In this document: positions 25,828-59,891 of the stretch, in pieces | How positions within the stretch are numbered: position 1 is the first letter of the stretch | Layout of the letters: each line of letters starts with the position of its first letter | Virus record (IMG/VR): IMGVR_UViG_3300006111_000001 | DNA length: 59,891 bases | Origin: a virus | Strand: one strand, 5' to 3' | Program-made: the position numbers and the translations under genes | The notes under the pieces: model-generated | What the model was told of the DNA's origin: nothing | The model's database searches: none | What the model saw: the letters and a program-made list of their open reading frames with translations, nothing else

Positions 25828-27513
25828 CTATGCCGCAACTTGAACTTTAACCGTCTCAGGCGGCAAATACCTTGCTCGCTCCTCATCGGTTAAGGTTGCA
25901 GGGTTTTTGCACGTGACTTCCAACGTCCCCAAATGAACCACTTGGAATGTCAAATCAACATCGCACCAGATTTGATACCCAGCTTTGCGAACCTTGCGAC
26001 AGAAATTCAAATCTTCCGAAAAATACAAAAATTCTTTGCCGTCATGGCCCAAAGTGTAATTCTCGTTGATCCACTCCGCTAATGGCGTGCCATCCAAACT
26101 GTCCAAAACCTCTTGCGGCGGCACGTCCGTAAAATAATCTTTCAGCAAAGATTTGAACCCATCCAGCCGGGTTTCACCTTGCCAATGATAGGTTTCAAAA
26201 TATGACGGCCATTGCGTCTTGCGGTACACATCACATTTGACCAGCAACAACCCGCCAGGCAGCAACAAAGCTTCCTGTAACCCGCCTTCCATAACCGATT
26301 GCGGGTTTTTAAAGGTCCCCAATGTTTCATAGGGCGGCACGCGCTTATTATAAGTCGCGCCCACAATGTCTTTCTTGTGGTTCAACAACCGAATAAGCGT
26401 ATCCGGTGGAAACTTCATATCTGAATCCACCCACAGGATAAAATCGCATCCTGTATCCAAAGCTTTTTGAACCGTGGAGTTGCGGGAATGCGTAATCATC
26501 GAAGATTGAACATTGATAATGGCGGTATCAATCCCGGCCCGTGCCGAATAAGTCAGCAGCCCCGCCACATCAACCGCCGTTCCCGCTTCCCATGTCCGGC
26601 CAGATGGAATAGCAATACCCACCCGCAACGGACGCGGGATGGATTTTTTAATCTCAGCAATGTGCTTTTCAGCCGCCGCTTTGATTTGCAAATACTTGTC
26701 AGATGGCGCGTGATCCATCTTGGCCGACACTTGCTTGATCAATTCCGGATTGCGCAGGTGCTTAATCTTTTCATAGCAAAAGGCTTGGGCTTGCGGCAAA
26801 CGTTCAAGCATGGCCCGGAACGCAGCCGTTTCTTTGCCGCCAAACGCCACTTCACCCAGAATAAACGCGTCTCGGCACCGAACAGGATGCGTTGCCTCAA
26901 AATAGCCAAGCCAAAATTCAAACTCAACCAAACCGTGAGTAAGCCCCTTGCCTTCGGGCATTAACACATCAAGATCAACCTCGATCAATTGGCCAAACAC
27001 CGTGGCGATTTCATCCCACCACGTATCGCCAAACCAATTTGGAAACCCATTGGGCATGAAATACCCAAGTGTCTCATAGACCTTGCGAGGAATGACCGGC
27101 AGAGACGGAAACCCCTGATGCCCCGCATCCCGCAGGTGCATGACCCCAATCCCATTGACCAGTCCCTTGGCCGCATTAAAAATGCGATTGGGCCATTTGG
27201 CATCATCATCCAAAGTATAGTCATCGGCAAAAGCCATCAGATACTTACCTTGAGATTTTTCAGCCAAAGCATTGTAAACCGCTGCCAATGTCCCATGTCG
27301 CTCACCCAGCACGACGGACAATTGCCGACCGGGGATTTCAAGCGTGCCAAGCAATTCAACCGCTTCGGTATAAGTTGAATCGTCGTCGTCTAGTGCAATA
27401 AGCACTTCGACATTTGGCGGGATTTTGCGGTTAATCATCAAAGATGATACGGCGCGCAAAAGATTGCCGGGACGACCCCGCGACGGGATCAGGACAGAAA
27501 TTTCAATGGTCAT
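25828..27513 (-). CDS. Two-domain glycosyltransferase (GT-A fold, GT2-like N-domain plus second DxD domain)
   Basis: 561 aa; N-terminus ISVLIPSRGRP...ALDDDDS (GT2-like); second domain with WVDSDMKF (DxD) and C-terminal FSEDLNFCRKVRKAGYQIWCD. Confidence 0.65.
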   Translation of the reverse strand: MTIEISVLIPSRGRPGNLLRAVSSLMINRKIPPNVEVLIALDDDDSTYTEAVELLGTLEIPGRQLSVVLGERHGTLAAVYNALAEKSQGKYLMAFADDYTLDDDAKWPNRIFNAAKGLVNGIGVMHLRDAGHQGFPSLPVIPRKVYETLGYFMPNGFPNWFGDTWWDEIATVFGQLIEVDLDVLMPEGKGLTHGLVEFEFWLGYFEATHPVRCRDAFILGEVAFGGKETAAFRAMLERLPQAQAFCYEKIKHLRNPELIKQVSAKMDHAPSDKYLQIKAAAEKHIAEIKKSIPRPLRVGIAIPSGRTWEAGTAVDVAGLLTYSARAGIDTAIINVQSSMITHSRNSTVQKALDTGCDFILWVDSDMKFPPDTLIRLLNHKKDIVGATYNKRVPPYETLGTFKNPQSVMEGGLQEALLLPGGLLLVKCDVYRKTQWPSYFETYHWQGETRLDGFKSLLKDYFTDVPPQEVLDSLDGTPLAEWINENYTLGHDGKEFLYFSEDLNFCRKVRKAGYQIWCDVDLTFQVVHLGTLEVTCKNPATLTDEERARYLPPETVKVQVAA

Positions 27514-36771: not shown

Positions 36772-37032
36772 TCAACCCGCCTTCCGGTTACGCTTGCGCG
36801 TGCCGCGCAGGTGCATAATTGACGTGTGATCCCGATTTAATAATCGCCCCATTTGTGCGCACGACAACCCCAGCGGGGCCATCGCCATTACAGCAGCCCG
36901 ACGAGCCGCAACCAATTCACGAAACCGAGCCTCGCCTTTAATTTCATCAATGGTAAACCCATGGGATTTAGCCACTTCTGCAATGACATACCGGCCACGC
37001 TCAAAACTGTTAATGTGCTCAGGAATAATCAT
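36772..37032 (-). CDS. DnaA domain IV-like HTH protein
   Basis: 86 aa; …AARRAAVMAMAPLGLSCAQMGRLLNRDHTSIMHLRG… resembles the DnaA C-terminal DNA-binding signature (…RDHTTV…). Confidence 0.55.
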   Translation of the reverse strand: MIIPEHINSFERGRYVIAEVAKSHGFTIDEIKGEARFRELVAARRAAVMAMAPLGLSCAQMGRLLNRDHTSIMHLRGTRKRNRKAG

Positions 37033-37907
37033 GCGGCATCCCCAAATAAATTTGATTGCCGATCAACGGAATCCAAATACCGGCACGCCTGGCGCCAATA
37101 AGCCTCTTTCAGTTCCGTGCCAATAAACTTTCGGCCTAGCTTGAGAGACATATACCCCTCAGATCCAATCCCCATAAATGGGCTCAAAACCACATCCCCG
37201 GCATTGCTCCACATAATCAAGGCCCGCTCAATCACATCAAGCTGCAATGGACACAAATGGCGCTCATCATTATGTTCCCGCGCCATGTGGACGTTCAAAA
37301 CATTGGATTGGTTGACAGTCATCCATACCGGGCTGGCCCATTCCTGCCATTGTTCAACGGGGAAATCTTCCGGCGTATGAGTGATAGGATCAGCATTCTC
37401 GCCCGGTTTCACAAACGTCAAAAGGTAATCGGGCATCCCGCCGCGACTTTTGGCGCTGTCTTTTTTTAGCTGCTTATAAAGCAAGCCGACATGCTTTGTA
37501 CGGGTCATTTCCGTGACAGGGCATTTCCAGATCGTGCGCCGTGAATGCAAAATCCATCCTTCCGCCTCATGAGCACGAATAATTTGCCCGCTGAAATCCT
37601 TGATCCCAACCGCGCCATCTTTCCATTTAGTCATCGGGAGATCGGAGCAATGAACGGCAGTCAGCCGCCCAGGTTTGGTTACACGGAATTTTTCGCGCAC
37701 CAAAAATTGATAATGGGCTGCAAATTCTTCATCAGTAGAATTGCCCATATCGGCGGCACTGGTCGAATAAACAAACAGCGATCCGAAAGGCGGCGAATAG
37801 ACCGAAAAATCAATGCTTTCGCTCGGTAACTGGCTTATGACGCTAACGCAGTCTCCGTTGAACGCCGCAAACCGCTCGCCGTGGTATTCGTTGTCGCAGT
37901 CAACCAT
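37029..37907 (-). CDS. DNA methyltransferase, N4/N6 class (beta permutation; SPPF motif)
   Basis: 292 aa; catalytic motif IV as …DFSVYSPPFG… precedes an AdoMet motif I-like …DVVLSPFMGIGSEG…; SPPF/SPPY is commonest in N4-cytosine enzymes but does not fix specificity. Confidence 0.7.
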   Translation of the reverse strand: MVDCDNEYHGERFAAFNGDCVSVISQLPSESIDFSVYSPPFGSLFVYSTSAADMGNSTDEEFAAHYQFLVREKFRVTKPGRLTAVHCSDLPMTKWKDGAVGIKDFSGQIIRAHEAEGWILHSRRTIWKCPVTEMTRTKHVGLLYKQLKKDSAKSRGGMPDYLLTFVKPGENADPITHTPEDFPVEQWQEWASPVWMTVNQSNVLNVHMAREHNDERHLCPLQLDVIERALIMWSNAGDVVLSPFMGIGSEGYMSLKLGRKFIGTELKEAYWRQACRYLDSVDRQSNLFGDAA

Positions 37908-39313
37908 GATGGTAGTCTCCCTTTGTGTTTAGGTTCGTAAGCAATCTTTGTTTGTTGAGTAGTGGTAGCAGACCGAAGCATGGCGGCGCGCATGGCGGAT
38001 TTCATCTTGCTGTGATCCATCGCCTTGCGGTCAATCACGCGTCCGATCTCGGATTCACCCTCTGCAACGATCAAGTGAACATTGACAGGTTTAGTCTGTC
38101 CAAACCGCCAGCAACGGCGGACGGCCTGATACCATGTCTCATAGGAATAGCCGCGACCGACAAACGCCATATCAGCGCAATGCGACCAATCTAAGCCATA
38201 TCCAAGCATCGACGGCTTGCCGATCAGCACCTTGATATCGCCCGAAGCAAAAGCCTCTAGTCGGCTTTCCTTTTCATCAATGGATTGTGCCCCCCGAACC
38301 TCAACCGCAAAAGGCAAAGCCTTTTTAACGCTGTCGGCTTCATAATCGGTATCAACCCAAATGATCCACGGTTTATCTTGAGTGACGAAGCCGCCCAAAA
38401 CATCCGTTCTAGCGGCAGCGGTTTGACGTTTCACGTCATGCAGATTGGTCGCTGATAGGGCCAGATGGGCAAATAGATCATTGCCATCGGTTTTAATTTC
38501 GGTTTGGGCCGCCTGATGCCGGATAATTTCCATCGGCGGCAGATCAAACCGCGAGTCAGTTTCCATGTCCCCCAGATCAGCCGGACGTTCAGCCATCCGG
38601 CACCAAGATGCCATCCAATCCCAAAATGAAATCTCAGCATGACCCTTAAGCCGCCACTCTTGGGAAGCGGTTGAAGTGTCATTGATAAAGAACCGGGATA
38701 GCATTTCATTTGCGGCCATGATTTCAAGAAATTCAGCATAATTGCCAATTTCCATGTGATCATTCGGGGCCGGTGTCGCGGTCGCTGTCAGCTTAAACCG
38801 ATGACCCTTGAACGCATCAATCAACGCCCGCGTGGTTTTATTTGTAAATGATTTAAGAATTGACGCCTCATCAAGTGACACGGCACCAAAAGCATCAGGA
38901 TCAATCTTATCCAAGCGGTCATAATTGCAAATGTTAATTCCTGGTCCAACATCTGACATTTCGCGGATTACGCGGGCCTCATAACCATACTTATCCGCCC
39001 GGCGCTTGGTTTGTTGCGCGACAGCTAACGGCGTCAGCAATAAACCGCGCCCGTTAGTCGCCTTCATGGCGTGGTACAAATACTCAAGCTGGATCTCGGT
39101 TTTGCCCATGCCAGTGTCTAAAAACAACCCAGCCGCGCCGACGCGCAAATTATGGTCAACGCATTCGCGCTGAAACGGAAACAAATGATCCGCTAACAAC
39201 GCATCGCCCTTTAAGCCGCGCATAACCGCACGAGGCTGCTTGGACGCAAGAAAAGATTGATAATCACCGTTCATTTGGTGTCCCAGCATAAAATTTTGTG
39301 TCAACCGGCTCAC
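37835..39313 (-). CDS. SNF2-like superfamily-2 helicase/ATPase
   Basis: 492 aa; Walker A (LDTGMGKT), DEAH-like motif II (VSLDEAS), motif III (LTATATP), and C-terminal …QAVRRCWRFGQTKPVNVHLIVAEGESE typical of SNF2 motif VI. Confidence 0.7.
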   Translation of the reverse strand: MSRLTQNFMLGHQMNGDYQSFLASKQPRAVMRGLKGDALLADHLFPFQRECVDHNLRVGAAGLFLDTGMGKTEIQLEYLYHAMKATNGRGLLLTPLAVAQQTKRRADKYGYEARVIREMSDVGPGINICNYDRLDKIDPDAFGAVSLDEASILKSFTNKTTRALIDAFKGHRFKLTATATPAPNDHMEIGNYAEFLEIMAANEMLSRFFINDTSTASQEWRLKGHAEISFWDWMASWCRMAERPADLGDMETDSRFDLPPMEIIRHQAAQTEIKTDGNDLFAHLALSATNLHDVKRQTAAARTDVLGGFVTQDKPWIIWVDTDYEADSVKKALPFAVEVRGAQSIDEKESRLEAFASGDIKVLIGKPSMLGYGLDWSHCADMAFVGRGYSYETWYQAVRRCWRFGQTKPVNVHLIVAEGESEIGRVIDRKAMDHSKMKSAMRAAMLRSATTTQQTKIAYEPKHKGRLPSWLTATTNTTASGLRRSTETALAS

Positions 39314-39466: not shown

Positions 39467-40654
39467 TCATGCCGCCGCCCTCACATCCATATATGCACCT
39501 ATGAACTCTGCCGCTGCTTGCGGGACAATCGCGTTACCGAAGCCGCGCAACATACCCACTCGGTTGGGTAGCCCATCAACCAAGAGACAAATTCCGGGTT
39601 TAACTGGCCTGGCTTTTCCGTCGATCCCGACAATCCGTTCTGCATCGGCCCAATAATTGCCGCTTGAACGTTCAACGCTTGGCTGTTGCGTTCGAATTGT
39701 GACGGCCCCGCGTTGTTTTTGGCGTCGTTCGTTGTCGGCGTCGACCAATAAACCATAGACGGAAGCGTCATGCTCCCCGATCCGTATTTCTGGTTCGGTC
39801 CGCCCTTGTCGCCGTCTGTCGCTTTGGGCGTCGACCAAAGCGCCGGCACATGATCCTGCAAATTGACCTGGTGCCCCGATTGTATCCGGGCTGCCGCTTT
39901 GTCCGGGTCCGTATAGTCCCCGCCGCCCTTCTCGCGCACTTGCGGCGTCGCCCAAAGCGCCGTCGTCTGGCGCAACAACAAGCCCCCTTGTAAATTCGGT
40001 TGAAGCTGCGCGCCCGTCCCGTCGTTCGCCCGAGGCGTCGGCCAAAGTGCTTGGATCGTATTCTGTAGCGTCACTGTTGCTTTTGAGCCGTCCGGCCGGA
40101 CCCCTGTCGGCGTCGTACCGGGAGGATTGCTTTGCCCGCCGCTCGGAGTTGTGGGCGTGGGCCACAAAGAACAATCGGTCGCGGCGGTGCGGCGCGCCGA
40201 CGGCACAAGCCGGAATAATCGCCGCCCCAACGGCGTAATCAAGTCCTTCAAGATCATTGGCGACATTGTCGAGCCATGATTGACCAACCGCTGCCGCAAC
40301 CTGTTCGCCAAACAGGTTTGAAGGTCGACACTCGCCGACGAGCCGAAACAATTCCGGCCAGAGGTGACGCTTGTCGTCGACCCCTTGCCGCTTTCCCGCG
40401 ACACTGAAGGGCTGGCATGGTGGCGAGCCGGTCCAGACGGGACGGTCGACCGGCCATCCGGCAAGTCTAAGAGCCTCGGCCCATCCCCCGATTCCGGCGA
40501 AGAAATGGACTTGGTCGAATCCGACAAGGTCGGCGCCGGTGACGTCGCAAATAGATCGAATGTCGACGAATCCATCTGGAATCAATCCTTGTTTGATTAG
40601 CTCGCGCAACCAAGCAGCGGCAAACGGATCGTTTTCGTTGTAATAAGCCGTCAT
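39467..40654 (-). CDS. DNA (cytosine-5) methyltransferase; conserved motifs split between two reading frames
   Basis: 395-aa frame carries motif I (FFAGIGG), motif IV (GSPPCQPFSVAG), motif VI (FGEQV), motif VIII-like (RRDRLFFV) and C-terminal motif X-like (GNAIVPQAAAEFI). The overlapping frame 39499..40575 carries five LW(P/A/S)TP repeats and a motif IX-like LMGYPTEW. Confidence 0.65.
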   Translation of the reverse strand: MTAYYNENDPFAAAWLRELIKQGLIPDGFVDIRSICDVTGADLVGFDQVHFFAGIGGWAEALRLAGWPVDRPVWTGSPPCQPFSVAGKRQGVDDKRHLWPELFRLVGECRPSNLFGEQVAAAVGQSWLDNVANDLEGLDYAVGAAIIPACAVGAPHRRDRLFFVAHAHNSERRAKQSSRYDADRGPAGRLKSNSDATEYDPSTLADASGERRDGRAASTEFTRGLVVAPDDGALGDAASAREGRRGLYGPGQSGSPDTIGAPGQFAGSCAGALVDAQSDRRRQGRTEPEIRIGEHDASVYGLLVDADNERRQKQRGAVTIRTQQPSVERSSGNYWADAERIVGIDGKARPVKPGICLLVDGLPNRVGMLRGFGNAIVPQAAAEFIGAYMDVRAAA

Positions 40655-42457: not shown

Positions 42458-43120
42458 ATGGAAACTTTAGGTAAACGAGTGCGCGCCCGTCGCGCTGATT
42501 TAAAATTGTCTCAAGCGGAACTTGCCAGCCGCGTGGGCATATCTCAGCCGTCTTTATCAGCCATTGAAAATGACGAGACTCAAGGCACCACCAAAATATT
42601 AAAGCTGGCAGAAGTATTGGAATGTGACCCCAATTGGCTTTTGATGGGCAATAAACTAAAGTTTAGCGTCCCCAACAAACTTACAACTTATAAAAATAAT
42701 CCTGTTGCAAACGAATCAGTTTTTACTACCATCAATATGGGCAAAAGAGACTTACCTATTAGAGGTCTGGCTCAAGGGGGTGATGGGGTGCTAACATTTG
42801 ACCAAGACGCAATAGATTATACTTTTCGTCCATCTAATTTAGTCGGCATAGATGAAGCGTTTGCGCTTTATGTTACCGGCGACTCCATGGGCGAAGTCTT
42901 GATCCCAGGCACTTTGTTATTGGTTCACCCCAAACAAGAACCAAAAATTATGGATTTTGTCGTTATTGAAAAAATTGACCGATCCGTAATCGTTAAACGA
43001 TTGGTTCGCAGATCGGCCAATAGCGTCACCTTGCGCGAATACGACCCGCCCAATGATTTTGTGCTTTCTCGCAGCGAAATTCGAATGATGTTGCGGGTTT
43101 GCGGGACGGCCATGGAATGA
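42458..43120 (+). CDS. CI-like repressor (HTH_XRE plus S24 LexA-like peptidase domain)
   Basis: 220 aa; N-terminal …LKLSQAELASRVGISQPSLSAIENDET… HTH; C-terminal …FALYVTGDSMGEVLIPGTLLLVHP…VIVKRL… with Ser and Lys catalytic-dyad context. Confidence 0.8.
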   Translation: METLGKRVRARRADLKLSQAELASRVGISQPSLSAIENDETQGTTKILKLAEVLECDPNWLLMGNKLKFSVPNKLTTYKNNPVANESVFTTINMGKRDLPIRGLAQGGDGVLTFDQDAIDYTFRPSNLVGIDEAFALYVTGDSMGEVLIPGTLLLVHPKQEPKIMDFVVIEKIDRSVIVKRLVRRSANSVTLREYDPPNDFVLSRSEIRMMLRVCGTAME

Positions 43121-50023: not shown

Positions 50024-50341
50024 ATGAACTTCCCGCGCCCAATCCCAGCCAACAGGCAAGATGAAATTGAAATTCATCGGCCTTGGGCACGGCTGCCAAA
50101 TTGGCCGCGATTGCTACCAGAACTTTTGGCGGCTGCCTATGTCGGCGGTGTCTCGATCGGTACTTTCCGAACGGAGGTCGAACAAGGCATTTGGCCCCCG
50201 CCAATCCGGCGCGGACGGCGCATATTTTGGGATTTGGGCGACCTTGATAGGGCAGTTGACCGGCTAAAGGGCATTGTATCTGATACTCTTCCTGATCAAC
50301 CTTCGGGCCTCGGGGACATAAATTGGGACAAATCCGCTTGA
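50024..50341 (+). CDS. Excisionase / AlpA-like HTH protein
   Basis: 105 aa; …LLAAAYVGGVSIGTFRTEVEQGIWPPPIRRGRRIFWDLGDLDRAVD… resembles Xis/AlpA DNA-binding domains; immediately upstream of integrase. Confidence 0.5.
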   Translation: MNFPRPIPANRQDEIEIHRPWARLPNWPRLLPELLAAAYVGGVSIGTFRTEVEQGIWPPPIRRGRRIFWDLGDLDRAVDRLKGIVSDTLPDQPSGLGDINWDKSA

Positions 50342-51375
50342 GCCTCAGCGTGCCACGGCTCCATATCGTCGGGGACCGCTTTTATTGGCGCCCCACGGCC
50401 CCTATCCGTGCTTTGGGGTTTTCTTACGAGGCTTTGGGCAAAGACCCCATGAAAGCCGCTGCAAGGGCCAGGGAGCTTAATGAACAGGTCGAGCGGGCCA
50501 AACTAGGGTTGGATGCCAGGACCAAGCGCGGCGACACGGTGGCAGCCCTGATCGACGCCTATCAGTCCTGCCCCCGGTATAAGAGCCGGGCGGAAACCAC
50601 CCGAAAGGGCTATGACCATTTCCTAAAACACATCCGCGCGCTTGCCGGGCATGTCATTGTGGCGACCATTGACCGGCCCGGCATGTTGCAGACCTATGAG
50701 AAGCTAATCGCCGCCAGGGGCCTTTATACCGCCAATGCGTATATGAAGGTCTGGCAGATATTGCTTAAGCACGCCTATGACCTCGGATGGCGCAAAGATA
50801 ACCCCGCCGCCGGGCTTGGGCTTCAAACGCCGCCGCCGCGAGAGCAAGTCTGGACGGTCGATCAAATCCTTGCATTTTGTGATGCCGCCGTGGAAATGGG
50901 CAGGCCGTCCATGCGTCTGGCGATGCTATTGGCCTATGACCTTGGGCAACGCCCTGGCGACTATATCAAGCTGACTTGGACCACTTACACCGGGTCCGGG
51001 TTTATGATTAAGCAGTCCAAGACCAAAACCCGCGTCAATGCGCCGTTCGAAAACCCGTTTCTTTGGGCTGAAATCGACGCCATGCCGCGCAAACACTCGC
51101 ATGTCTTGATTTGTGAGGGGACCAAAGCCCCCTATAAGGCTGATTATTTCCGGCACCTATGCACCAAGATCAGGCGCGCGGCCAAACTGCCGGAACAGCT
51201 TCAATTCCGCGATCTGCGCCGGACAGCCGCCACGGAAATTGGCAATGCCGGGGCAACAGATGATCAGTTACGGGCGCTCCAAGGCTGGAAAACCCGGAAT
51301 CAGGCGGCGACTTATGTGGTGGTATCGTCAGCCGGTGCCGAAGGCGCTCAAGCGAAACGGAGGGCGAACAGGTAA
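50323..51375 (+). CDS. int: Tyrosine integrase
   Basis: 350 aa; N-terminal SAM-like and C-terminal catalytic patterns (…GQRPGDYIKLTW…, …FRDLRRTAATEIGNAG…LQGWKTRNQAATYV…). Confidence 0.8.
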   Translation: MGQIRLSLSVPRLHIVGDRFYWRPTAPIRALGFSYEALGKDPMKAAARARELNEQVERAKLGLDARTKRGDTVAALIDAYQSCPRYKSRAETTRKGYDHFLKHIRALAGHVIVATIDRPGMLQTYEKLIAARGLYTANAYMKVWQILLKHAYDLGWRKDNPAAGLGLQTPPPREQVWTVDQILAFCDAAVEMGRPSMRLAMLLAYDLGQRPGDYIKLTWTTYTGSGFMIKQSKTKTRVNAPFENPFLWAEIDAMPRKHSHVLICEGTKAPYKADYFRHLCTKIRRAAKLPEQLQFRDLRRTAATEIGNAGATDDQLRALQGWKTRNQAATYVVVSSAGAEGAQAKRRANR

Positions 51376-51453
51376 AGGATCAGGTGTAATTTTCGTTACA
51401 CTTTGGGGGTTTTTCAGGGGCTAAGGATTTTCCCTAACCCCTTGAAAAATCTT

Positions 51454-51500
51454 GGTGAGCGCGATGGGATTCGAACCCATGACCCTTTGATTAAAAGTAT
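51454..51500 (-). other. tRNA 3'-end fragment (T-arm, acceptor 3' strand and CCA): probable attP core
   Basis: Minus-strand reading …ATGGG-TTCGAAT-CCCAT-CGCGCTC-A-CCA gives a canonical T stem-loop, a 7-nt acceptor 3' strand, discriminator and CCA; no matching 5' acceptor strand (GAGCGCG) upstream, so not a complete tRNA gene. Confidence 0.55.
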
Positions 51501-51614
51501 CATGCACCCCTAGCAAATCCGCCATTTTTTACACTTGTTCTGCGTCTGTTCATGTATGATATATCAATGACTTACGGGCTAAGTGTAACGGCAGTTTGAT
51601 GGAAAAGTGATAAA

Positions 51615-51983
51615 ATGGCAGGAGATGTTTCAGTCAATTTGGCGCCACAAACATCAAAACTGGAAAATTCAACCAAAACCAGTTTTGTTTATTTGGTCCG
51701 CAGCGGGCAACATTTAAAAATTGGCAGAACGAAAAATGTTCAAGCCAGATTTTTGGCTTTGCAAAATGCCACACCCGCCAAATTACGTTTAATCCGGTAT
51801 TTTGAAGTGCCCGCCGAAGAAGTGATCGGGATAGAATATGAAGCCATGGTAACTTTAAAATCCCAGGGCTATCACGTTCGAGGCGAGTGGTTTTCGGCGC
51901 CCACCGATTTAGCTTTAAGGGCTATCTATCAAGCAATTGAAGCCGCAAAGCCTAATGGCAAGCCAATTGTGACTCCGGCCTAG
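51615..51983 (+). CDS. T5orf172 (GIY-YIG-like) domain protein
   Basis: 122 aa; …SFVYLVRSGQHLKIGRTKNVQARFLALQNATPAKLRLI…GEWFSAP… follows the T5orf172 pattern. Confidence 0.6.
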   Translation: MAGDVSVNLAPQTSKLENSTKTSFVYLVRSGQHLKIGRTKNVQARFLALQNATPAKLRLIRYFEVPAEEVIGIEYEAMVTLKSQGYHVRGEWFSAPTDLALRAIYQAIEAAKPNGKPIVTPA

Positions 51984-52107: not shown

Positions 52108-52362
52108 CTATTTTGCTTCTCGCGCTAATTTGCGCGCTGGAATGGTTTTACAAAAATCAATTATTTGGATACAAGATTTACAAGTGACTTTGCCGCGCTC
52201 AGATTTGACAAAGAAATCATTACCTTCTTCGCCATCAAGCGAAAACCCACAAAGCGTATAATCTTCACCAGTCACAGAACCAGAATGAGCGATACCATTA
52301 TTTTCTATCCAAATCGCAATCATCGGTCGCTCCTTAATAATAAATGGACAAATCGCCTGCAC
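52108..52362 (-). CDS. Hypothetical small Cys-containing protein
   Basis: 84 aa; AT-richer accessory region. Confidence 0.3.
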   Translation of the reverse strand: MQAICPFIIKERPMIAIWIENNGIAHSGSVTGEDYTLCGFSLDGEEGNDFFVKSERGKVTCKSCIQIIDFCKTIPARKLAREAK

Positions 52363-52612
52363 ACGCTTGTCCCATGTCTTTCGTGGTGCAGTACGGATGG
52401 GTCATAGCAGCTCCTTATTTCATGTAACTGGTCACGCCGGATATTTTTTCCATATCGGCTTTAATAACTTCATTGACCACATGATAATGCCATCGCCAAA
52501 GCAATGAAATGACTTCATCTCTAGCGCGTCCGCGAGGCATAACCCACAAACCAAAATGGATTATATGTCGCGTCAAAGAATATCGAAAATTTTTCACGGC
52601 GACTCGCTCCTT

Positions 52613-52825
52613 TTATGCCGCTTTGATCATTGCCGTATAGCAAATGGCAGTTGTTTGTTTAGGCGGCGGGTAATCTTCGAACGGCGACAATGCGTCTATT
52701 TTGTTTTGATCCATGAGTTCTAACGCAGCTTGTAACCCAGCCGATATTTGTTTGTCAGTTGGTTCTTTGGGAACAATGACAAACCCTTGGGGGCATAGAT
52801 AAGTTAAAAGTTTAATCCACATCAT
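52613..52825 (-). CDS. Hypothetical small protein
   Basis: 70 aa. Confidence 0.3.
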   Translation of the reverse strand: MMWIKLLTYLCPQGFVIVPKEPTDKQISAGLQAALELMDQNKIDALSPFEDYPPPKQTTAICYTAMIKAA

Positions 52826-53010
52826 CGGCTCCTTAATAATTGGCGCGGGCTATCGCAGTCCACCATCCGGTAGCTGGATTATCTCTTACCGTACCCCCGC
52901 GCAGCACAGTCGTATTCTGTCGGAAATGTCCCCTATGGGCGTCATCAGCGGTCATCCGGCTCTGAATGACTTGAGATTGACCAAGACAGAAATCAGTCAA
53001 TTCGATGCTC

Positions 53011-53235
53011 CTATTGTGCAGTTTGTTTAAACCCAAAATATTCTGGATCGTCTGAAATTAAGTCAAATACTTTTCCATATTTCAAATCTAGCTTTTCATG
53101 GACAAGTGCCCAATGTGCTCCATCTGACAGGTCAAGCGTTTCGACCTCATCCATTATTTCTTTGATGCGCTTTTTAGACGGGTTCATGGTCGCTCCTTTA
53201 TTCCCAATTTTCATTATTAGCGCGGTCAACCGCAT
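53011..53235 (-). CDS. Hypothetical small protein
   Basis: 74 aa. Confidence 0.3.
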   Translation of the reverse strand: MRLTALIMKIGNKGATMNPSKKRIKEIMDEVETLDLSDGAHWALVHEKLDLKYGKVFDLISDDPEYFGFKQTAQ

Positions 53236-53395
53236 CTACGCCAATCGCCAATTTCTGCGCCTCGGTGAAAGTGTCCCATATTTCTCTTGTTTTGTAACCA
53301 ACGTGATTGCGCCAATTATGCACTCGACCGCCTTTCCCCCAAGATTGGGGAACTTCGAGGATTTCTTTGATAAGATATTCATCAAGCTCGTCCAT
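53198..53395 (-). CDS. Hypothetical small protein
   Basis: 65 aa. Confidence 0.3.
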   Translation of the reverse strand: MDELDEYLIKEILEVPQSWGKGGRVHNWRNHVGYKTREIWDTFTEAQKLAIGVDAVDRANNENWE

Positions 53396-53404
53396 TACCG
53401 GCTC

Positions 53405-54031
53405 CTAATTTGCTTTGCGCTTTTTGCAATCGCGCAATCGTGTGTAAATAATGCTTTCGCTGACTTTCAGCTTGGCCGCGATTTGCTTGATCGTCAGCCC
53501 TTCCTTGCGGAGGGCTTTAATCTGTTTCAGCTTTTCAGCGGTTAGTTTCTTGGGCGCACCTTGCCAGCCGCCCTCACGTTCTTTAAACGCCTGAATACCG
53601 GCTTTAGTCCGTTCAATGGTTAGCTGGCGTTCAAATTCCGCGACAATGGCGAATAGGCCAAGGATTAGCTTGCCGGTTGCTGTGCTGAAATCGAATTGCT
53701 CTGTCAGGGATTTAAAAGACGCGCCCGCATCGGAAATCTGGTCTAGCCGTGCGTATAGTTCACGCATATTGCGGGCCAGCCGATCTAGACGCCAGACCAC
53801 AAGGGTATCGCCCTCGCGCAAATCTTTCATGGCGTGTTCAAGTGCCGGTCTGGACTTAGACGCCGCCGATTTTTTTTCGATGTGGAGATTGTCGGGCAAC
53901 ACCCCGGCACGCTTAAGCGCGTCCACTTGAAGGTCAAGTTTCTGATCTTCTGTGAACACGCGGGCATACCCGATTAATCGGGTCGCGGGCAGGTCTGGCA
54001 ATTTTGTGCGTCGTTTCAAAACCATGACCAC
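53405..54031 (-). CDS. Serine recombinase (Hin/Gin invertase-resolvase family) with Phe in place of the catalytic Ser
   Basis: 208 aa; strong family match (…DTLVVWRLDRLARNMRELYARLDQISDAGASFKSLTEQFDFSTATGKLILGLFAIVAEFERQLTIERTKAG… plus C-terminal HTH), but the nucleophile motif reads GYARVFTEDQ (codon ttc) instead of GYARVSTxxQ. Confidence 0.75.
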   Translation of the reverse strand: MVMVLKRRTKLPDLPATRLIGYARVFTEDQKLDLQVDALKRAGVLPDNLHIEKKSAASKSRPALEHAMKDLREGDTLVVWRLDRLARNMRELYARLDQISDAGASFKSLTEQFDFSTATGKLILGLFAIVAEFERQLTIERTKAGIQAFKEREGGWQGAPKKLTAEKLKQIKALRKEGLTIKQIAAKLKVSESIIYTRLRDCKKRKAN

Positions 54032-54119
54032 ATTTTACATGAAACGGCCAGATAGTCAACAAATAGCGTATGATTTTTACACTGGAATTAGCGAATGGCT
54101 ATTGCAGTCTAATTTGATC

Positions 54120-54140
54120 CGTGTATAATGGGGACACCAA
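54120..54140 (+). promoter_or_regulatory. Candidate extended -10 promoter for the plus-strand accessory operon
   Basis: …tgTATAATggggaca… (TGnTATAAT) ~25 nt upstream of the 54156 ATG, followed by GGAG RBS. Confidence 0.35.
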
Positions 54141-54155
54141 CACGGAGACACGACA

Positions 54156-54374
54156 ATGACCATCGAAAAGAATATTTCAATTTTTGACGGAAACGACCAG
54201 GAACACGCCGAATTTATTCGCGGCTGCGTCAAAAGCCTTGGCGGTGAAATCCCCGCTCATTGGTCAGACGAAGCGGTAATCGAGTTTTTTAATACCCTGT
54301 CTAACGATGCCCCGCGCATTTATACGGACATGGAAAAAGCAGATATGAAATATCAAGCCCAAATGGCTGAATAA
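54156..54374 (+). CDS. Hypothetical protein
   Basis: 72 aa; first gene of the plus-strand accessory operon. Confidence 0.4.
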   Translation: MTIEKNISIFDGNDQEHAEFIRGCVKSLGGEIPAHWSDEAVIEFFNTLSNDAPRIYTDMEKADMKYQAQMAE

Positions 54375-54388
54375 GAAAGGCCCGACTA

Positions 54389-54652
54389 ATGCGTTATGTT
54401 CTTGAGGGTGAATGGAGCGGATACGTAAGCGCCCAACAAAAGGTGCATCATCGGGAAATTGTGCCCGCATCTTTGGTTAAGGATATGCGACTGCACACAA
54501 TCCAATTTACCGATGGAACTTATTTGAGGATTAAGTGTTGGGAAGCCAAGCCGCGTGAACGCATTGAAACCAAAGACCAGTATGGCCGGTTGATACGTGA
54601 CGCAATTCGGATTGGCAAACCTTTTGTCACCGTCAGCGAACTCAAGCAATAA
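54389..54652 (+). CDS. Hypothetical protein
   Basis: 87 aa; preceded by the conserved TAA-AAAGGCCC-N5-ATG junction. Confidence 0.4.
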   Translation: MRYVLEGEWSGYVSAQQKVHHREIVPASLVKDMRLHTIQFTDGTYLRIKCWEAKPRERIETKDQYGRLIRDAIRIGKPFVTVSELKQ

Positions 54653-54663
54653 AGGCCCGCTCC

Positions 54664-55182
54664 ATGCGCGACATTCACAAAGACATTGGCGAAAAGCTAA
54701 AAGCAACGCTTGATGCTGCAATAGGCGAGACTGCGCTTAAAGCCGTCAAAGAAAAGACAAAAGAAATTATCCAAGAAATTGAAGATGATCTTGAATACCG
54801 CGTCAAAGATGATCTGGCTTACAATTTGGTCGAATATGTGGCCGATATGGCAAACAAAACAATTGACGCTTTATTGCGCGGCAATGAAAACGAAATGCGC
54901 CGGTATCTTGGTTGCGAACGTGGCGCTTGGACAGGTCGAAGCGATGCCGATGTATGTGGTGCCAAGCGTCCAGACGATCAATGGCACCAAGTCATAAACG
55001 GCACCTTGTCCGAATATGGCGGCTTAGATTTACGGCGCAAAATCGCAGATGCTTACGCCGATCTTATCAAAAATGAGCGCATTCTTGATTTGGAAAATCA
55101 GGTGAAATGCCTTGTTGCCCAGGTTAATAAATTGGAAGCCCAAAAACGTGACATTTGGGAACGCCGTGGCGAATACGCTTAA
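54664..55182 (+). CDS. Hypothetical coiled-coil protein
   Basis: 172 aa; preceded by the conserved AAAGGCCC junction. Confidence 0.4.
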   Translation: MRDIHKDIGEKLKATLDAAIGETALKAVKEKTKEIIQEIEDDLEYRVKDDLAYNLVEYVADMANKTIDALLRGNENEMRRYLGCERGAWTGRSDADVCGAKRPDDQWHQVINGTLSEYGGLDLRRKIADAYADLIKNERILDLENQVKCLVAQVNKLEAQKRDIWERRGEYA

Positions 55183-55204
55183 CCCTAGAATAAAGGCCCC
55201 GACT

Positions 55205-55456
55205 ATGACCTTATCAGATTTAGTTGACCAAGCATCCGATCTTGCCGCAGACCTGCACAACAAGGCCGCATTGATTGAGCGCGGTAAAGCCAATCTTAAC
55301 CTAAGCGGCGATGCGGATCATTCCGTGATCCAAGCGTTTACATCACTGGCAACGGCGGCGGCTGCAATGGCAAACGCTTTGATAATGCAAAGCGCATTGA
55401 CCAAGCAAAAAGCCGACAATGACGCAATCCGCGCCACCCTCAAAGCTAAACAATAA
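55205..55456 (+). CDS. Hypothetical protein
   Basis: 84 aa from ATG at 55205 (in frame within track ORF 55112..55456); preceded by AAAGGCCCCGACT. Confidence 0.35.
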   Translation: MTLSDLVDQASDLAADLHNKAALIERGKANLNLSGDADHSVIQAFTSLATAAAAMANALIMQSALTKQKADNDAIRATLKAKQ

Positions 55457-55467
55457 AGGCCCAGACC

Positions 55468-55650
55468 ATGATCCGCAGACGCGCCAAAATCACCATTACG
55501 GTATCCGTTGATTTGGATGATGTGCCGGGTGCTTACTACCAGCCCGAAGATTGGGTGCAAATGATGACAGGTGAAATTTTGTCTCGCGCCAATCACTATA
55601 ACCCAAAACTTGAAGCCACTGACATTGAAGTCAGTCGCATCACTCAATAA
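55468..55650 (+). CDS. Hypothetical protein
   Basis: 60 aa; preceded by AAAGGCCCAGACC. Confidence 0.35.
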   Translation: MIRRRAKITITVSVDLDDVPGAYYQPEDWVQMMTGEILSRANHYNPKLEATDIEVSRITQ

Positions 55651-55661
55651 GGCCCCGCGCT

Positions 55662-56834
55662 TTGATTCGCTCATTCAACTACATCCCAGCGCGTGCAGCC
55701 GGTCAAATTTTGTTTGACGGATTCCCATATCAATCCGCGATTGAGTGGCCCAATTTCATTCATGGCCAATGTCAAAACATTCAAGCCAATGGTCAGCCCG
55801 ATCAATTTGGATGGCGATACAAAACCATTGACGGCACCCCTTACCTTTTGGCCGATGACCCATTTGTGGTCAAATTAAAAAACGCAATGGTTCAGCGCGT
55901 CAATTTTGGTCAAGACCGCTGGCACGTTGCCGTCAGCCCAGGGGTTTGTATTGAAGAAACCTATTATTCGGGCGAATGGTTTAACCGTTTTTGCGGTCAA
56001 ACCATGAGAATCCCCACCAATGCCGGATCGTTTGACGTGCATGTCATGGAAGATATTGCGCCAGAGTCGGTGTCATCCGTCCCCAGCGTATTATTGGCTC
56101 ATCAATGGGACACGAATTATGCGCATTGCCTAATGGAAACCGTGGGAAAATTGTTTTTAGCAGAACATTGGGACGATCATTTGCCGCAGCTAATCTGGAA
56201 CCCGACAACCCCATATCAGCGCGAGATTGCGGATTTGCTATCAATCAAATACGTTCCGCAAACCCAAAAAGCCGTTCAATACGATGAATTATATGTCATT
56301 TCCCAATTTGCCCATAACGGGATTTGCGCGGAACAGTTCAAACAAATCCGCGCGCTGTTTCAACAAAGGCTTTGCGACAAAATCCCTTATTTCTCAAATC
56401 CCCCAGTTACATCAGGCAACAAGCGCATTCTGATTTCCAGAAACGACGCCACCAGCCGCCGTATTGCTAATGAATCAAACATAATGACCGCCCTGGCTCC
56501 CATGGGCTTTGAGCGTGTCACGTTGAGCAATTTAAGCGTGCTCGACCAGGCCAAGCTATTTCATTCAGCATCAATCATTGTGGCGCCACACGGCGCCGGA
56601 TTAATGAATATGCTGTTTGCCAGCCCCAGCACCGCCTTGATTGAAATTGCCCCCGAATCCTACCAGCACCCTTTGTTCTGGTACGTCGCCAAGTGGTTGG
56701 GCCATTGGTACGGGCGAATCATCACCCCGGATCACGGTTCCGAAAAAGACATGATTGTTGACATTGCGGCGGTTAAAAACGCCATTGACGCCGCCATATC
56801 GTCTAAAAGTGTACGGTCATCACTTGTTGCATAG
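55662..56834 (+). CDS. Glycosyltransferase, GT61/DUF563-like
   Basis: 390 aa; C-terminal …RILISRNDATSRRIANESNIMTALAPMGFERVTL…LFHSASIIVAPHGAGLMNMLFASP… resembles the DUF563/GT61 core. Confidence 0.55.
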   Translation: MIRSFNYIPARAAGQILFDGFPYQSAIEWPNFIHGQCQNIQANGQPDQFGWRYKTIDGTPYLLADDPFVVKLKNAMVQRVNFGQDRWHVAVSPGVCIEETYYSGEWFNRFCGQTMRIPTNAGSFDVHVMEDIAPESVSSVPSVLLAHQWDTNYAHCLMETVGKLFLAEHWDDHLPQLIWNPTTPYQREIADLLSIKYVPQTQKAVQYDELYVISQFAHNGICAEQFKQIRALFQQRLCDKIPYFSNPPVTSGNKRILISRNDATSRRIANESNIMTALAPMGFERVTLSNLSVLDQAKLFHSASIIVAPHGAGLMNMLFASPSTALIEIAPESYQHPLFWYVAKWLGHWYGRIITPDHGSEKDMIVDIAAVKNAIDAAISSKSVRSSLVA

Positions 56835-56889
56835 CTAAAAAGGCATCAAGGTAAATAAAAACGCCTTTTAACCCCTTGGAGTAACGACA

Positions 56890-57378
56890 ATGAAAAACGC
56901 CCTATTAGCTTTATTGGCCCTAATGTTTATTGCACCCCCAGCCATGGCCGGAGGAACGCCGTGTCAAATGTTCGCCGGGTATTTTCGCTGTAACGGCGGC
57001 AATCAGGCTTTATGGGTGCCAAATTCCGGCCTGTATTGGAACCCCAGCGAAGGCGGTACAAGCTGGACCATCCAACAATCCACCAATGGCCACACAATCC
57101 TGATTTCTGGCCTTGGATGGAGCGATACCGGCAACGGCAATGCAGATTGGTATTTGGCCAGACTAGAGCCGGTTGACACCGAAACGGCGCCTAACGTTTA
57201 TACGTCAACGTCAACAATTCAGTGCATCGGCGGTCAAGGTCTGTCATCGCCCAATTATCTTGCGCCCAATTGCGTTTTGACCGGCAAATCCATTTCGCTA
57301 ACGCTGGAAAGCACAACGGCTGGCACTTTGGTTTACGGCACCAGAACCAGCCACGTTGAAAATTACGTCAATTTTTAG
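56890..57378 (+). CDS. Secreted protein (signal peptide)
   Basis: 162 aa; MKNALLALLALMFIAPPAMAGG leader; last gene of the plus-strand accessory operon. Confidence 0.45.
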   Translation: MKNALLALLALMFIAPPAMAGGTPCQMFAGYFRCNGGNQALWVPNSGLYWNPSEGGTSWTIQQSTNGHTILISGLGWSDTGNGNADWYLARLEPVDTETAPNVYTSTSTIQCIGGQGLSSPNYLAPNCVLTGKSISLTLESTTAGTLVYGTRTSHVENYVNF

Positions 57379-57640
57379 TCCGGCAATTGGCTTCGACATT
57401 ACGATTGTGAATAACCGCCCATTGCTTTTCCGAACGCGTCCATCTTGATTCAAAATCTGAATCAGGATGGACTTCGGAAAGCCACCCGCACGCAGTTGGA
57501 TTAGGCGCCGGATTTTCCGCGCAACTCGCTGTCAAGATCAGCGTCAGACATGCGCCGCACATCATCATGAATGATTTGAGCATTTCGATCCTCCGCAACA
57601 GCGGATTGCAAATCAACCGCTTGTTGTTCAATTCGGCCAT
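57368..57640 (-). CDS. Lipoprotein, o-spanin-like (overlapping the i-spanin-like gene)
   Basis: Lipobox-like …LILTASC…, Pro-rich; overlaps 57501..57734 in another frame as in Rz/Rz1 pairs; likely starts at an internal Met. Confidence 0.4.
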   Translation of the reverse strand: MAELNNKRLICNPLLRRIEMLKSFMMMCGACLTLILTASCAENPAPNPTACGWLSEVHPDSDFESRWTRSEKQWAVIHNRNVEANCRTKN

Positions 57641-58084: not shown

Positions 58085-58355
58085 GGATTAACTTGCGCCG
58101 GATGGCATCCACCAACGGCACCAAAGACGCCCCCACAATCAGCGCCACTTCATCGCCAGGCACAACCAATTGACCGGCGCTCAGGCAATGAATGACCCAT
58201 TGCAACACAAGCCCAGCGCCAGCCGTGGACATGGCAACAGCGGACGTGGAAGTATTTTGACTGGTGTTCATAACATTACCCTGATAAAGCCGACGCAGCC
58301 GCTTGAGCAAGCTGATTATCGGTATATGGATCAGACCCGTTTTCGTGATGGACAA
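58044..58355 (-). CDS. Hypothetical membrane protein
   Basis: 103-aa track ORF with hydrophobic helices; overlaps neighbours, start uncertain. Confidence 0.3.
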   Translation of the reverse strand: MSITKTGLIHIPIISLLKRLRRLYQGNVMNTSQNTSTSAVAMSTAGAGLVLQWVIHCLSAGQLVVPGDEVALIVGASLVPLVDAIRRKLIREIDPQSLQTNGV

Positions 58356-58710
58356 TGGCGCGCGTCAACGGGATCAAAACCAATTGAGACGACAAATTCA
58401 CATATTCATCCGGTCCGCATCCGGTCAAATTGCACACATCGCTTTTATATGCCTCAGTGTCATTTTCCGATGGGGGCGCCCATCGATCAATTGCGCCAGA
58501 AATCGTATTAATGCCGTGCAGCACTTGATAATTTTTCAACGTAATCATCAGCGCCCGCAAACCATCTTCCGGCGTATCAAATTCGCAAAATTGATCGTCG
58601 GAACCCGGCACCACTTGCCCTTTCCAAATGGTTTTGGAAAGTTTGATATTGCCAGGATTGTTTAATCGAATGCCGCGCGCGGTCATTTTTTGATCCATCG
58701 TTTTTCGCAA
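58276..58710 (-). CDS. Lysis-cassette protein, candidate endolysin/cell-wall hydrolase
   Basis: 144 aa; conserved-looking N-terminal …RGIRLNNPGNIK… motif; flanked by holin-like and spanin-like genes. Enzymatic class not recognised with confidence. Confidence 0.35.
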   Translation of the reverse strand: MRKTMDQKMTARGIRLNNPGNIKLSKTIWKGQVVPGSDDQFCEFDTPEDGLRALMITLKNYQVLHGINTISGAIDRWAPPSENDTEAYKSDVCNLTGCGPDEYVNLSSQLVLIPLTRAIVHHENGSDPYTDNQLAQAAASALSG

Positions 58711-58907: not shown

Positions 58908-59759
58908 TTACCAAAAGATTGCCGCGTAACCCGCTGTTGCGTTACCACCTGATTGCGCGCTTGTACCAGCAGCGGCACCACCGCCACCACCACCATATCC
59001 AGAAGCATTACCGCCCGCTGCACCAGCGGCAGTAGCGTTGGCTCCATCGCCACCTTTGCCTAAGTACCCACCACCACCACCACCACCAGCCGTGCCGGAA
59101 GCTGCGCCCGATCCCCCCAAAGATGAACTTGAAAATAATGAGGCTGCACCATAGCCGCCTTGATAGACTGTACCTGAGTTGCGTTGACCAGCACCACCAC
59201 CACCTGGATAACCGCCGTCAGTAGAAGTGGTTGATCCAGAATAAATACCGCCCGGACCGCCACCACCAGACATGCCCCCTGGATAAACAAGCGCTTTATT
59301 AAGGCCACCACCGGCTGAGTAAGTAACACCACCAACAACTAACGTGGTAGCTGTGCCATTACCGCCAATTGCACCACTTGCAGCAGCGCCAGCAGCGCCA
59401 ATTGTTATGGTTGCACTAGACCCAATGTAGACGGGGAAAAATTCAACGCCACCAGCACCACCGCCGCCGCCGCCCTCTGTTCCACTTGCAGGGGTGCCAT
59501 TGCCAGCAGCACCCCCGCCAACAAGTAAAACGTAATAAACGCCATACCCTTTGCCTTGCGTGACCGGATTAAATGTCCCGCTTGCCGTGTAGGCAACTTG
59601 ATAATTAAGACCGCTTAGGCCAATAAATGCTTTGCCAGCAGCGGGACCCGCCCCAGGCGCAACATTCAACGGCGTTGCAACCGCAAAGCCTAACTGACCA
59701 ATTGCGAATAAAAGCGCAATTAATCCAAAGCGAAGATTCTTAAGCATTTTAGAAATCAC
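58908..59759 (-). CDS. Glycine-rich fibre-module protein with signal-peptide-like N-terminus
   Basis: 283 aa; MISKMLKNLRFGLIALLFAIGQLGFAVA leader; long poly-Gly/Ala/Ser tracts; precedes the lysis cassette. Confidence 0.5.
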   Translation of the reverse strand: MISKMLKNLRFGLIALLFAIGQLGFAVATPLNVAPGAGPAAGKAFIGLSGLNYQVAYTASGTFNPVTQGKGYGVYYVLLVGGGAAGNGTPASGTEGGGGGGAGGVEFFPVYIGSSATITIGAAGAAASGAIGGNGTATTLVVGGVTYSAGGGLNKALVYPGGMSGGGGPGGIYSGSTTSTDGGYPGGGGAGQRNSGTVYQGGYGAASLFSSSSLGGSGAASGTAGGGGGGGYLGKGGDGANATAAGAAGGNASGYGGGGGGAAAGTSAQSGGNATAGYAAIFW

Positions 59760-59771
59760 CGCAAACAGAGG

Positions 59772-59891
59772 TCAGATTGATATAGGTTGACGTGGAAACG
59801 GTCGGAGTCGCCGTCAACGTATCGCCGCTTTTCAAAAACAAATATGGATTTCCATAATTGTCCAATGGCAAACCCTGCCAAGTTGCAGAAT
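59772..59891. repeat. Terminal direct repeat, right copy (identical to 1..120)
   Basis: Exact 120-nt match to window start; implies a unit genome of ~59771 bp. Confidence 0.9.

Follow-up and report, generated by a model that had tools for sequence, protein, structure and literature searches.

The viral DNA IMGVR_UViG_3300006111_000001 of IMG/VR (59,891 nucleotides; the whole of this stretch is called the window hereafter) carries close to its end a gene for a glycosyltransferase (GT) of family GT61, directly followed by a gene for a secreted protein. This locus raises the question of what such an enzyme does for a phage, and whether its neighbour takes part in the same task. By sequence, fold and motif, the enzyme is almost certainly a genuine member of GT61, and it most likely represents an ordinary kind of phage cargo taken from an unusual enzyme family. 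It may modify the repeat unit of a host surface glycan in the cytoplasm, a reading that we regard as having nearly an even chance. The secreted protein, judged from the gene content of related loci, is adjacent but independent cargo, and the two genes do not form a functional pair. The coordinates of the features are collected in Table 1.

The TTG start of the GT61 gene is credible because three observations agree: an AAGG ribosome-binding site (RBS) is located 8 nt upstream, in the same layout as in the preceding gene; gene calls made independently on related contigs from metagenomes chose the same TTG; and the homologue P0002 aligned with the phage protein from residue 1. The preliminary description of this DNA had proposed a GT61/DUF563 assignment, to be confirmed by a profile search, and the two open reading frames (ORFs) have proved to lie where it had placed them. 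The Pfam model PF04577 (Glyco_transf_61, formerly DUF563) matched the protein with 88.3 bits (E 7.1e-25; the gathering cut-off is 27 bits), the entire profile (positions 1-137) being covered at residues 153-327, so that the domain search led to GT61 and not to a family of another kind. The PHROGs collection returned phrog_29695 alone, a family of unknown function, and the NCBIfam search gave no match. Among the sequences of the PDB, EOGT (9wjk) and POMGNT2 were the only ones retrieved (E about 1e-3), with alignments that cover the C-terminal half of the protein, including HGAGLxx, a motif that was aligned to HGAGLTH in EOGT and to HGAQL in POMGNT2.

The fold search agrees with this assignment. 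An AlphaFold (AF2) model, for which ten homologues were the input, reached a pLDDT of 71.7 and a pTM of 0.74, with confidence above 90 at residues 260-330 and low values at 21-65 and 101-113. In a Foldseek search with this model, POMGNT2 chains occupied ranks 1 to 16 (E about 1e-11, probability 1.00, TM about 0.5), while generic GT-B enzymes such as TibC and WaaC appeared far below them. The solved GT61 structures (POMGNT2 6xfi, 7e9j and 8kb7; EOGT 9wjk) share with the phage enzyme a Rossmann-like C-terminal half that holds HGAGxxN/H and a conserved Glu. In the phage protein, the catalytic part of this half would span about residues 250-360. R260, R266, H310, G311, G313, N316 and E328 are invariant in the alignment with the 10 homologues, and the nucleotide-sugar-binding motif R..R..HGAGxxN..E is intact (H310-G-A-G-L-M-N316). 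The enzyme is thus predicted to be functional, with inverting transfer from a nucleoside-diphosphate sugar (NDP-sugar) as expected from its family membership.

No transmembrane segment or hydrophobic stretch was found in the protein (the 19-residue Kyte-Doolittle maximum is 1.26 and falls inside the Rossmann core), nor was a signal peptide. Since it lacks a hydrophobic segment, the enzyme is predicted to be soluble and cytoplasmic. It is similar in size to the bacterial members of GT61, which have about 390-430 amino acids and carry annotations as GTs for capsule or O-antigen. Identity amounts to 28-30% with the nearest of these, and to 12-15% with the solved eukaryotic enzymes. Animal GT61 enzymes also carry FN3, EGF-recognition and membrane-anchor parts, which are absent from the phage protein. 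Whereas the bacterial enzymes are parts of glycan gene clusters, that of the phage is phage-borne and solitary.

An indication of its role comes from its relatives. Among 5.8 billion proteins, the enzyme has its own cluster of 99-100% identical copies (from several metagenomes plus a single NCBI record), beyond which identity falls to 30% or less. Of the relatives whose gene context could be used, the three nearest (P0002, P0004 and P0005) are all cellular and belong to polysaccharide loci. P0002 is surrounded by NDP-sugar epimerase/dehydratases, FkbM methyltransferases and radical-SAM enzymes, and P0004 and P0005 are encoded directly 3' of a Wzx flippase gene, near genes for Wza, Wzy and GT2/GT4 enzymes. 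A GT61/DUF563 gene also belongs to a capsule cluster of Vibrio (PMC11641403). A function in surface glycans is favoured because the nearest cellular relatives sit in such Wzx/Wzy clusters. According to the mechanism proposed here, the GT61 gene would be accessory cargo of the so-called moron type, located in a dispensable region of a temperate phage and transcribed, without dependence on the late genes, from an operon promoter of its own near 54.1 kb. The enzyme would use an NDP-sugar as donor and attach its sugar to a repeat unit linked to undecaprenyl diphosphate, or to another precursor facing the cytoplasm. The acceptor would be a host surface polysaccharide (O-antigen, capsule or exopolysaccharide), as is presumed for the relatives in Wzx/Wzy clusters. 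The altered glycan on the lysogen or infected cell would change the availability of receptors for the same or other phages, leading to lysogenic conversion or superinfection exclusion.

Viruses do hold other GT61 genes, as shown by loci in IMG/VR, by phrog_29695 and by gp210 of Synechococcus phage Bellamy. The 42 GT61 loci found in IMG/VR (27-49% identity across partial stretches) adjoin genes for FkbM methyltransferases, asparagine synthase or epimerase/dehydratases, or lie in giant-virus contigs. When 50,697 phage records were searched, megablast with 53-59.9 kb of the window found nothing, and tblastn with the GT61 protein found the Bellamy gene only (24.6% identity). In the searched literature, no link of GT61 with bacteriophages was encountered. 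GT61 appears to be rare in temperate phages, though not unique among viruses.

The setting of the gene is consistent with conversion. The window has an exact 120-bp terminal direct repeat (1-120 = 59772-59891), the related contig L001 continues from the window end into the window start, and related contigs measure 59.6-60.2 kb; the window is therefore an entire phage genome of about 59,771 bp, either circularly permuted or with terminal redundancy. The JGI sample identifiers (Ga00078xx, 33000061xx) look like those of bog-lake metagenomes from Wisconsin, in which case the phage would come from freshwater. With a portal gene of BPP-1/T7 type, a major head protein gene, a tyrosine integrase, a CI-like repressor and a candidate attP core, the phage is, by gene content, temperate and podovirus-like. 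The core lies 78 nt past the integrase stop and reads, on the minus strand, CTTTTAATCAAAGGGTCATGGGTTCGAATCCCATCGCGCTCACCA. It comprises the anticodon loop CUUUUAA, the 3' anticodon stem, the variable loop, the T-arm, the acceptor strand, the discriminator and CCA; the 5' half of tRNA-Lys is absent at 51453-51497, so that no complete tRNA is present. A weak T-arm match at 51453-51522 had at first been taken for a tmRNA, a reading that was replaced by the 3' half of tRNA-Lys once the sequence was read. This half gene would be a classic attP core, which implies integration into a tRNA-Lys gene of the host. In Shigella converting phages, an attP core of 46 nt corresponds to tRNA-thrW (PMC3636060). 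Right after attP lies a 122-amino-acid ORF (51615-51983, plus strand), whose counterpart on the related contig L018 has T5orf172/MUG113 (GIY-YIG-like) matches in Pfam.

From about 42.4 kb downwards, the minus strand carries a unit with the genes for replication, packaging, head, tail and fibres, which continues past the ends of the window and is completed by the lysis cassette. Directly upstream of this cassette, the late unit encodes an extremely Gly-rich protein of 283 amino acids (58908-59759, minus strand) with a weak match to PF21722 (Gly_rich_2). Two DNA methyltransferase genes (37029-37907 and 39467-40654, minus strand) flank a helicase gene (37835-39313), and the phage probably methylates its own DNA.

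Table 1. Features of the window that are discussed in the text (positions in nucleotides).
Feature	Position	Strand	Details and basis
Tandem GT-A protein	25828-27513	-	PF00535 (GT2) and Anp1-like second domain; phrog_14945, phrog_1574
CI/LexA-like repressor	42458-43120		lysogeny module
Tyrosine integrase	50323-51375	+	phrog_1, E 3.5e-29
Candidate attP core, 3' half of tRNA-Lys(UUU) gene	51453-51497	-	cmscan T-arm match and sequence reading
Small serine recombinase (resolvase/DNA-invertase type)	53405-54031	-	PF00239 E 6e-38, phrog_125 E 3e-57; divergent from operon
Candidate promoter of accessory operon	54102-54129	+	-35 TTGCAG 54102-54107, 16-nt spacer, -10 TATAAT 54124-54129; read from sequence
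RBS of operon gene 1	54144-54147	+	GGAG; sequence reading
Operon gene 1	54156-54374	+	72 amino acids, orphan; ORF list and gene calls on related contigs
Operon gene 2	54389-54652	+	87 amino acids, orphan
Operon gene 3	54664-55182	+	172 amino acids, helical/coiled-coil-like, orphan
Operon gene 4	55205-55456	+	83 amino acids, orphan; gene call on L001/L018
Operon gene 5	55468-55650	+	60 amino acids, orphan
GT61 (DUF563) glycosyltransferase gene	55662-56834	+	390 amino acids, TTG start; ORF list
Secreted protein gene	56890-57378	+	162 amino acids, ATG start; ORF list
Predicted signal peptide of secreted protein	56890-56949	+	residues 1-20, read from sequence
Lysis cassette	ends 57368	-	holin candidates, endolysin 58276-58710 (phrog_873), Rz/Rz1-type spanins (phrog_1275)
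Rz1-like o-spanin, end of lysis cassette	57368-57640	-	lipobox LTASC, phrog_1275

Between attP and the end of the lysis unit lies an accessory arm (GC 0.46-0.48, or 0.482 as a single value, compared with 0.511 for the genome), which contains a few small minus-strand ORFs, the serine recombinase gene and then, divergent from it, an operon on the plus strand (54156-57378), opposite to the late and lysis unit, on which it converges. The claim that the GT61 gene belongs to a promoter-driven plus-strand operon has held as regards the layout, with seven genes separated by gaps of 14, 11, 22, 11, 11 and 55 nt. The promoter itself is less certain, as it has a perfect -10 element and a weak -35 element (3/6 matches) and falls below the threshold of the consensus scan. 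The GT61 gene had also been described as the end of this operon, a place that belongs to the secreted protein gene, the seventh of seven, with GT61 as the sixth. The last 11 nt of the secreted protein gene are shared with the convergent o-spanin gene, and the terminator scan found no intrinsic terminator between them.

Several additional regulatory or defensive features were considered for this region and set aside. No operator-like motif is common to the operon promoter and the immunity region, which discards the sharing of CI operators, and no convincing inverted repeats for a Gin/Cin-like invertible switch over the operon were found within 50-59.9 kb. A known defence system was also rejected, as no operon protein had a match in PADLOC. 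The phage has a serine recombinase besides its tyrosine integrase, and the position of this recombinase gene next to the operon had prompted the idea of such a switch.

The same operon has to be weighed as part of an early or middle unit of the lytic cycle, in which the GT would modify an envelope precursor or another target of the host, or the phage DNA, for takeover or anti-defence. This alternative, which we consider possible but unlikely, is in line with the co-orientation of the operon with the PL-like early arm at 43-52 kb and with the presence of five small orphan proteins, which are typical of early host-takeover genes; genes 1 to 5 have no relatives in Pfam, PHROGs, PADLOC, PDB or phage records. 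Nevertheless, the minus-strand genes at 52108-54031 part the operon from the early arm and make read-through unlikely, and no anti-defence signature was found in the operon proteins. As to DNA as a target, the methyltransferases are the evident DNA-modification system of the phage, and we know of no GT61 enzyme that acts on DNA, which counts against this part of the alternative.

If the GT61 enzyme does act on a host surface glycan, it would do so differently from the systems known for such conversion. The likeness lies in the position of the cargo: the GtrABC cassettes of the Shigella phages SfI, SfV and SfX and of the Salmonella phage P22, as well as Oac of Sf6, are located, as in this phage, in a non-essential arm proximal to att/int. 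In Shigella converting phages, the glycan-modifying cargo is proximal to att and the attP core matches a tRNA gene at its 3' end (PMC3636060), a type to which the candidate core of this phage also belongs. However, according to Pfam, the operon encodes neither a GtrA flippase, a GtrB bactoprenol-glucose synthase nor a GT-C enzyme of GtrC type, and no membrane enzyme of acyltransferase-3 type. The gtrABC genes are immediately next to attP, while the operon starts 2.7 kb from it. Gtr-type modification takes place in the periplasm, whereas the soluble GT61 enzyme would act before the repeat unit is flipped. Because it has no GtrA/B/C or membrane enzyme and is not adjacent to attP, the operon is not a Gtr-type system, and conversion by this phage is a proposal.

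A number of observations weigh against the surface-glycan function. At the identity of 28-30% that separates the enzyme from its homologues in polysaccharide clusters, acceptor specificity is not conserved. Known seroconverting phages rely on GtrABC, O-acetyltransferases or Wzy/Iap, not on a lone soluble GT, and a lone cytoplasmic GT must compete inside the host's own assembly line. The weak -35 element, the five co-transcribed orphans without a known role and the distance of the operon from attP, to which it is not immediately adjacent, point in the same direction. Expression of the operon in lysogens is presumed, a point that also speaks for the lytic alternative. Finally, no integrated copy was found: a scan of GTDB-representative genomes with GT61 returned distant cellular copies only (24-38% identity), and a metagenome scan with the integrase returned a free-phage contig and no prophage, so that lysogeny and host are known by inference. 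The suggestion of lysogenic conversion made in the preliminary description is thus supported indirectly by the temperate gene content, the att-proximal arm and the relatives in Wzx/Wzy/Wza clusters.

One further point speaks against this function and in favour of a different acceptor: the solved and characterised GT61 enzymes that were retrieved, EOGT and POMGNT2, all act on proteins or protein-linked glycans. It could thus be hypothesized that the phage enzyme O-glycosylates the Gly/Ser/Thr-rich fibre or capsid proteins of the phage in the cytoplasm before assembly, a possibility that the preliminary description had also contemplated for the fibre proteins. The Gly-rich protein and the fibre genes, which lie just past the lysis cassette, could offer such substrates. 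We consider this explanation distinctly unlikely, as the GT61 gene is located in the att-proximal arm, on the strand opposite to all structural and late genes, and its nearest cellular homologues belong to polysaccharide clusters and not to protein-glycosylation loci. The genome encodes, moreover, a second GT, the tandem GT-A protein of Table 1, and the earlier claim that the two are unrelated is borne out by BLASTP (E 1.2). This second gene sits between an exonuclease gene and the packaging and portal genes, beside head genes in the minus-strand block, and represents a candidate better placed than GT61 for glycosylation related to the virion or to DNA.

The host surface glycan consequently keeps its place as the favoured target, and the question that follows is whether the secreted protein contributes to it. 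The signal peptide noted in the preliminary description was recognized again by reading the sequence: the N-terminus MKNALLALLALMFIAPPAMA, followed by GG, has the n-h-c organization of a Sec signal and an A-x-A site (cleavage between AMA and GG), and lacks a lipobox. The mature protein, of 142 amino acids, is predicted to form a single 8-stranded up-and-down beta-barrel. This arrangement is reminiscent of enzyme-substrate pairs such as TibC-TibA, Aah-AIDA-I and HMW1C-HMW1, and the GT61 enzyme could accordingly glycosylate the barrel, rich in Ser, Thr and Asn, before its export by Sec. The adjacency of both genes, 55 nt apart in one operon, the content of Ser, Thr and Asn (31% of the mature protein) and the appearance of TibC among the weaker fold matches of GT61 (E 1.5e-3) would be in agreement with this idea. 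The TibC match, however, reflects the generic GT-B fold (TM 0.31), and the comparison with related loci makes such a pair very improbable.

The most informative of these loci are L020, L021 and L022, which represent a lineage with a DNA divergence of about 16% and in which the secreted protein gene is intact. In L020, this gene is found in another context, behind a DUF3987 primase-like gene, in a region (4101-5231, also present in L021 and L022) composed of a 99-nt scrap of a gene for 1826 amino acids (window 8636-8734), a decayed 3' piece of GT61, the barrel gene in intact form and ~100 nt of the spanin 3' end. The GT61 piece corresponds to the last 380 nt of the 5'-truncated gene, with HGAG replaced by LDAG and a +1 frameshift within a run of A. 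This mosaic is evidence that the cargo was captured by recombination. In addition, the hidden Markov model (HMM) of the barrel domain matched none of about 50 further GT61 loci from viruses and cells, so that none of the other viral GT61 genes is followed by a barrel protein, unlike that of this phage, and a GT61 domain is absent from all 48 + 114 barrel-domain proteins. In pairs of the TibC-TibA or HMW1C-HMW1 type, the GT gene and that of the exported substrate are conserved together, which is not the case for GT61 and the barrel. Because the barrel gene is intact beside a decayed GT61 gene and other GT61 loci are devoid of it, the coupling of both genes implied in the preliminary description is not borne out. 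A terminator or regulatory hairpin between the two genes was also considered and rejected, as the AAAAGGC...GCCTTTT repeat folds no better than shuffled sequences (z -0.53).

The L020 lineage also bears on the possibility that the GT61 gene is a recently acquired passenger, functionally irrelevant and heading for loss. Its decay in one related lineage, and its solitary position, without the sugar-activation or methyltransferase genes found beside GT61 in other viral contigs, would fit such a history. Nonetheless, in the window the ORF is of full length and has all the family-invariant residues, contigs of several samples carry the gene with 99-100% identity, and the ratio of nonsynonymous to synonymous substitution rates (dN/dS) is 0.15 across the part comparable with L020 (99 codons). 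The gene was therefore under selection before the L020 lineage recently lost it, and the idea of a mere passenger is highly unlikely, the least probable of those considered.

As for the secreted protein, its counterpart in the L020-L022 lineage has 90% amino acid identity, with a dN/dS of 0.088 (dS 0.81), values which indicate that it is under strong purifying selection. The protein has no match in Pfam, NCBIfam or PHROGs and was an orphan in a word-indexed search, but exhaustive HMMER searching found 48 relatives, and a profile search added 114 barrel-domain members, all of them annotated as hypothetical and none with a Pfam model; the named members among these 114 come from Betaproteobacteria and from metagenome-assembled genomes of Binatia. 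Common to them is a domain about 115 residues long, which shows the signatures G-W-W-W-N-P-x-E-S/G-G-R-G, W-Y, G-G-Q-T-L-x-G-x-Y-x-x-P and a terminal R-F/Y. The phage protein is a stand-alone copy of this domain, whereas the relatives (P0017-P0174) usually have it as tandem pairs; they bear signal peptides or lipoboxes, and S8 subtilases, M64 peptidases, beta-propellers or cytochrome c domains are frequent fusion partners. No matching sequence was found in the PDB with the domain profile (best E 0.59), nor was there a significant match of the barrel among the viral structures of BFVD.

Because the predicted strands are short, the protein holds two Cys pairs (one of them common to P0017, the closest single-domain relative) and the family is fused to soluble enzymes, a soluble periplasmic barrel is favoured over an outer-membrane protein such as the 8-stranded barrels of Lom/Ail/OmpX type. 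Its topology is like that of the calycin-type 8-stranded soluble barrels (lipocalins, avidins, YceI, PliC/MliC), with no sequence kinship to them. The protein would thus be a Sec-exported, disulfide-containing, calycin-like barrel of an uncharacterised domain family, maintained independently of GT61, and its family probably provides a module that binds the envelope or a ligand in the periplasm.

The two genes could also be combined in another way, with GT61 as a protein-directed O-glycosyltransferase acting on fibres or on an envelope protein of the host, and the barrel as a member of a new and widespread periplasmic family that binds glycans or the envelope and was recruited by the phage for superinfection exclusion. 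We regard this combination as improbable; if true, the enzyme would be the first prokaryotic or viral GT61 to glycosylate proteins.

Whatever the acceptor, two by-products of this study stand out as the most useful, namely the assignment of attP and the finding of an unannotated family of secreted beta-barrels, which, with more than 100 environmental proteins and neither a Pfam model nor a solved structure, may merit a family description. Since the searched literature and structures yielded no GT61 enzyme of bacteria or viruses whose activity has been demonstrated, the small, solitary phage enzyme would represent a convenient handle to assign donor and acceptor specificity in this family. If the modification of the host surface glycan is confirmed, it would constitute a mechanistically different route of surface conversion, in which a lone soluble GT-B enzyme on the cytoplasmic face would take the place of GtrABC, O-acetyltransferases or Wzy, and this route would operate in an environmental, seemingly freshwater, phage-host system whose receptor dynamics are poorly known.

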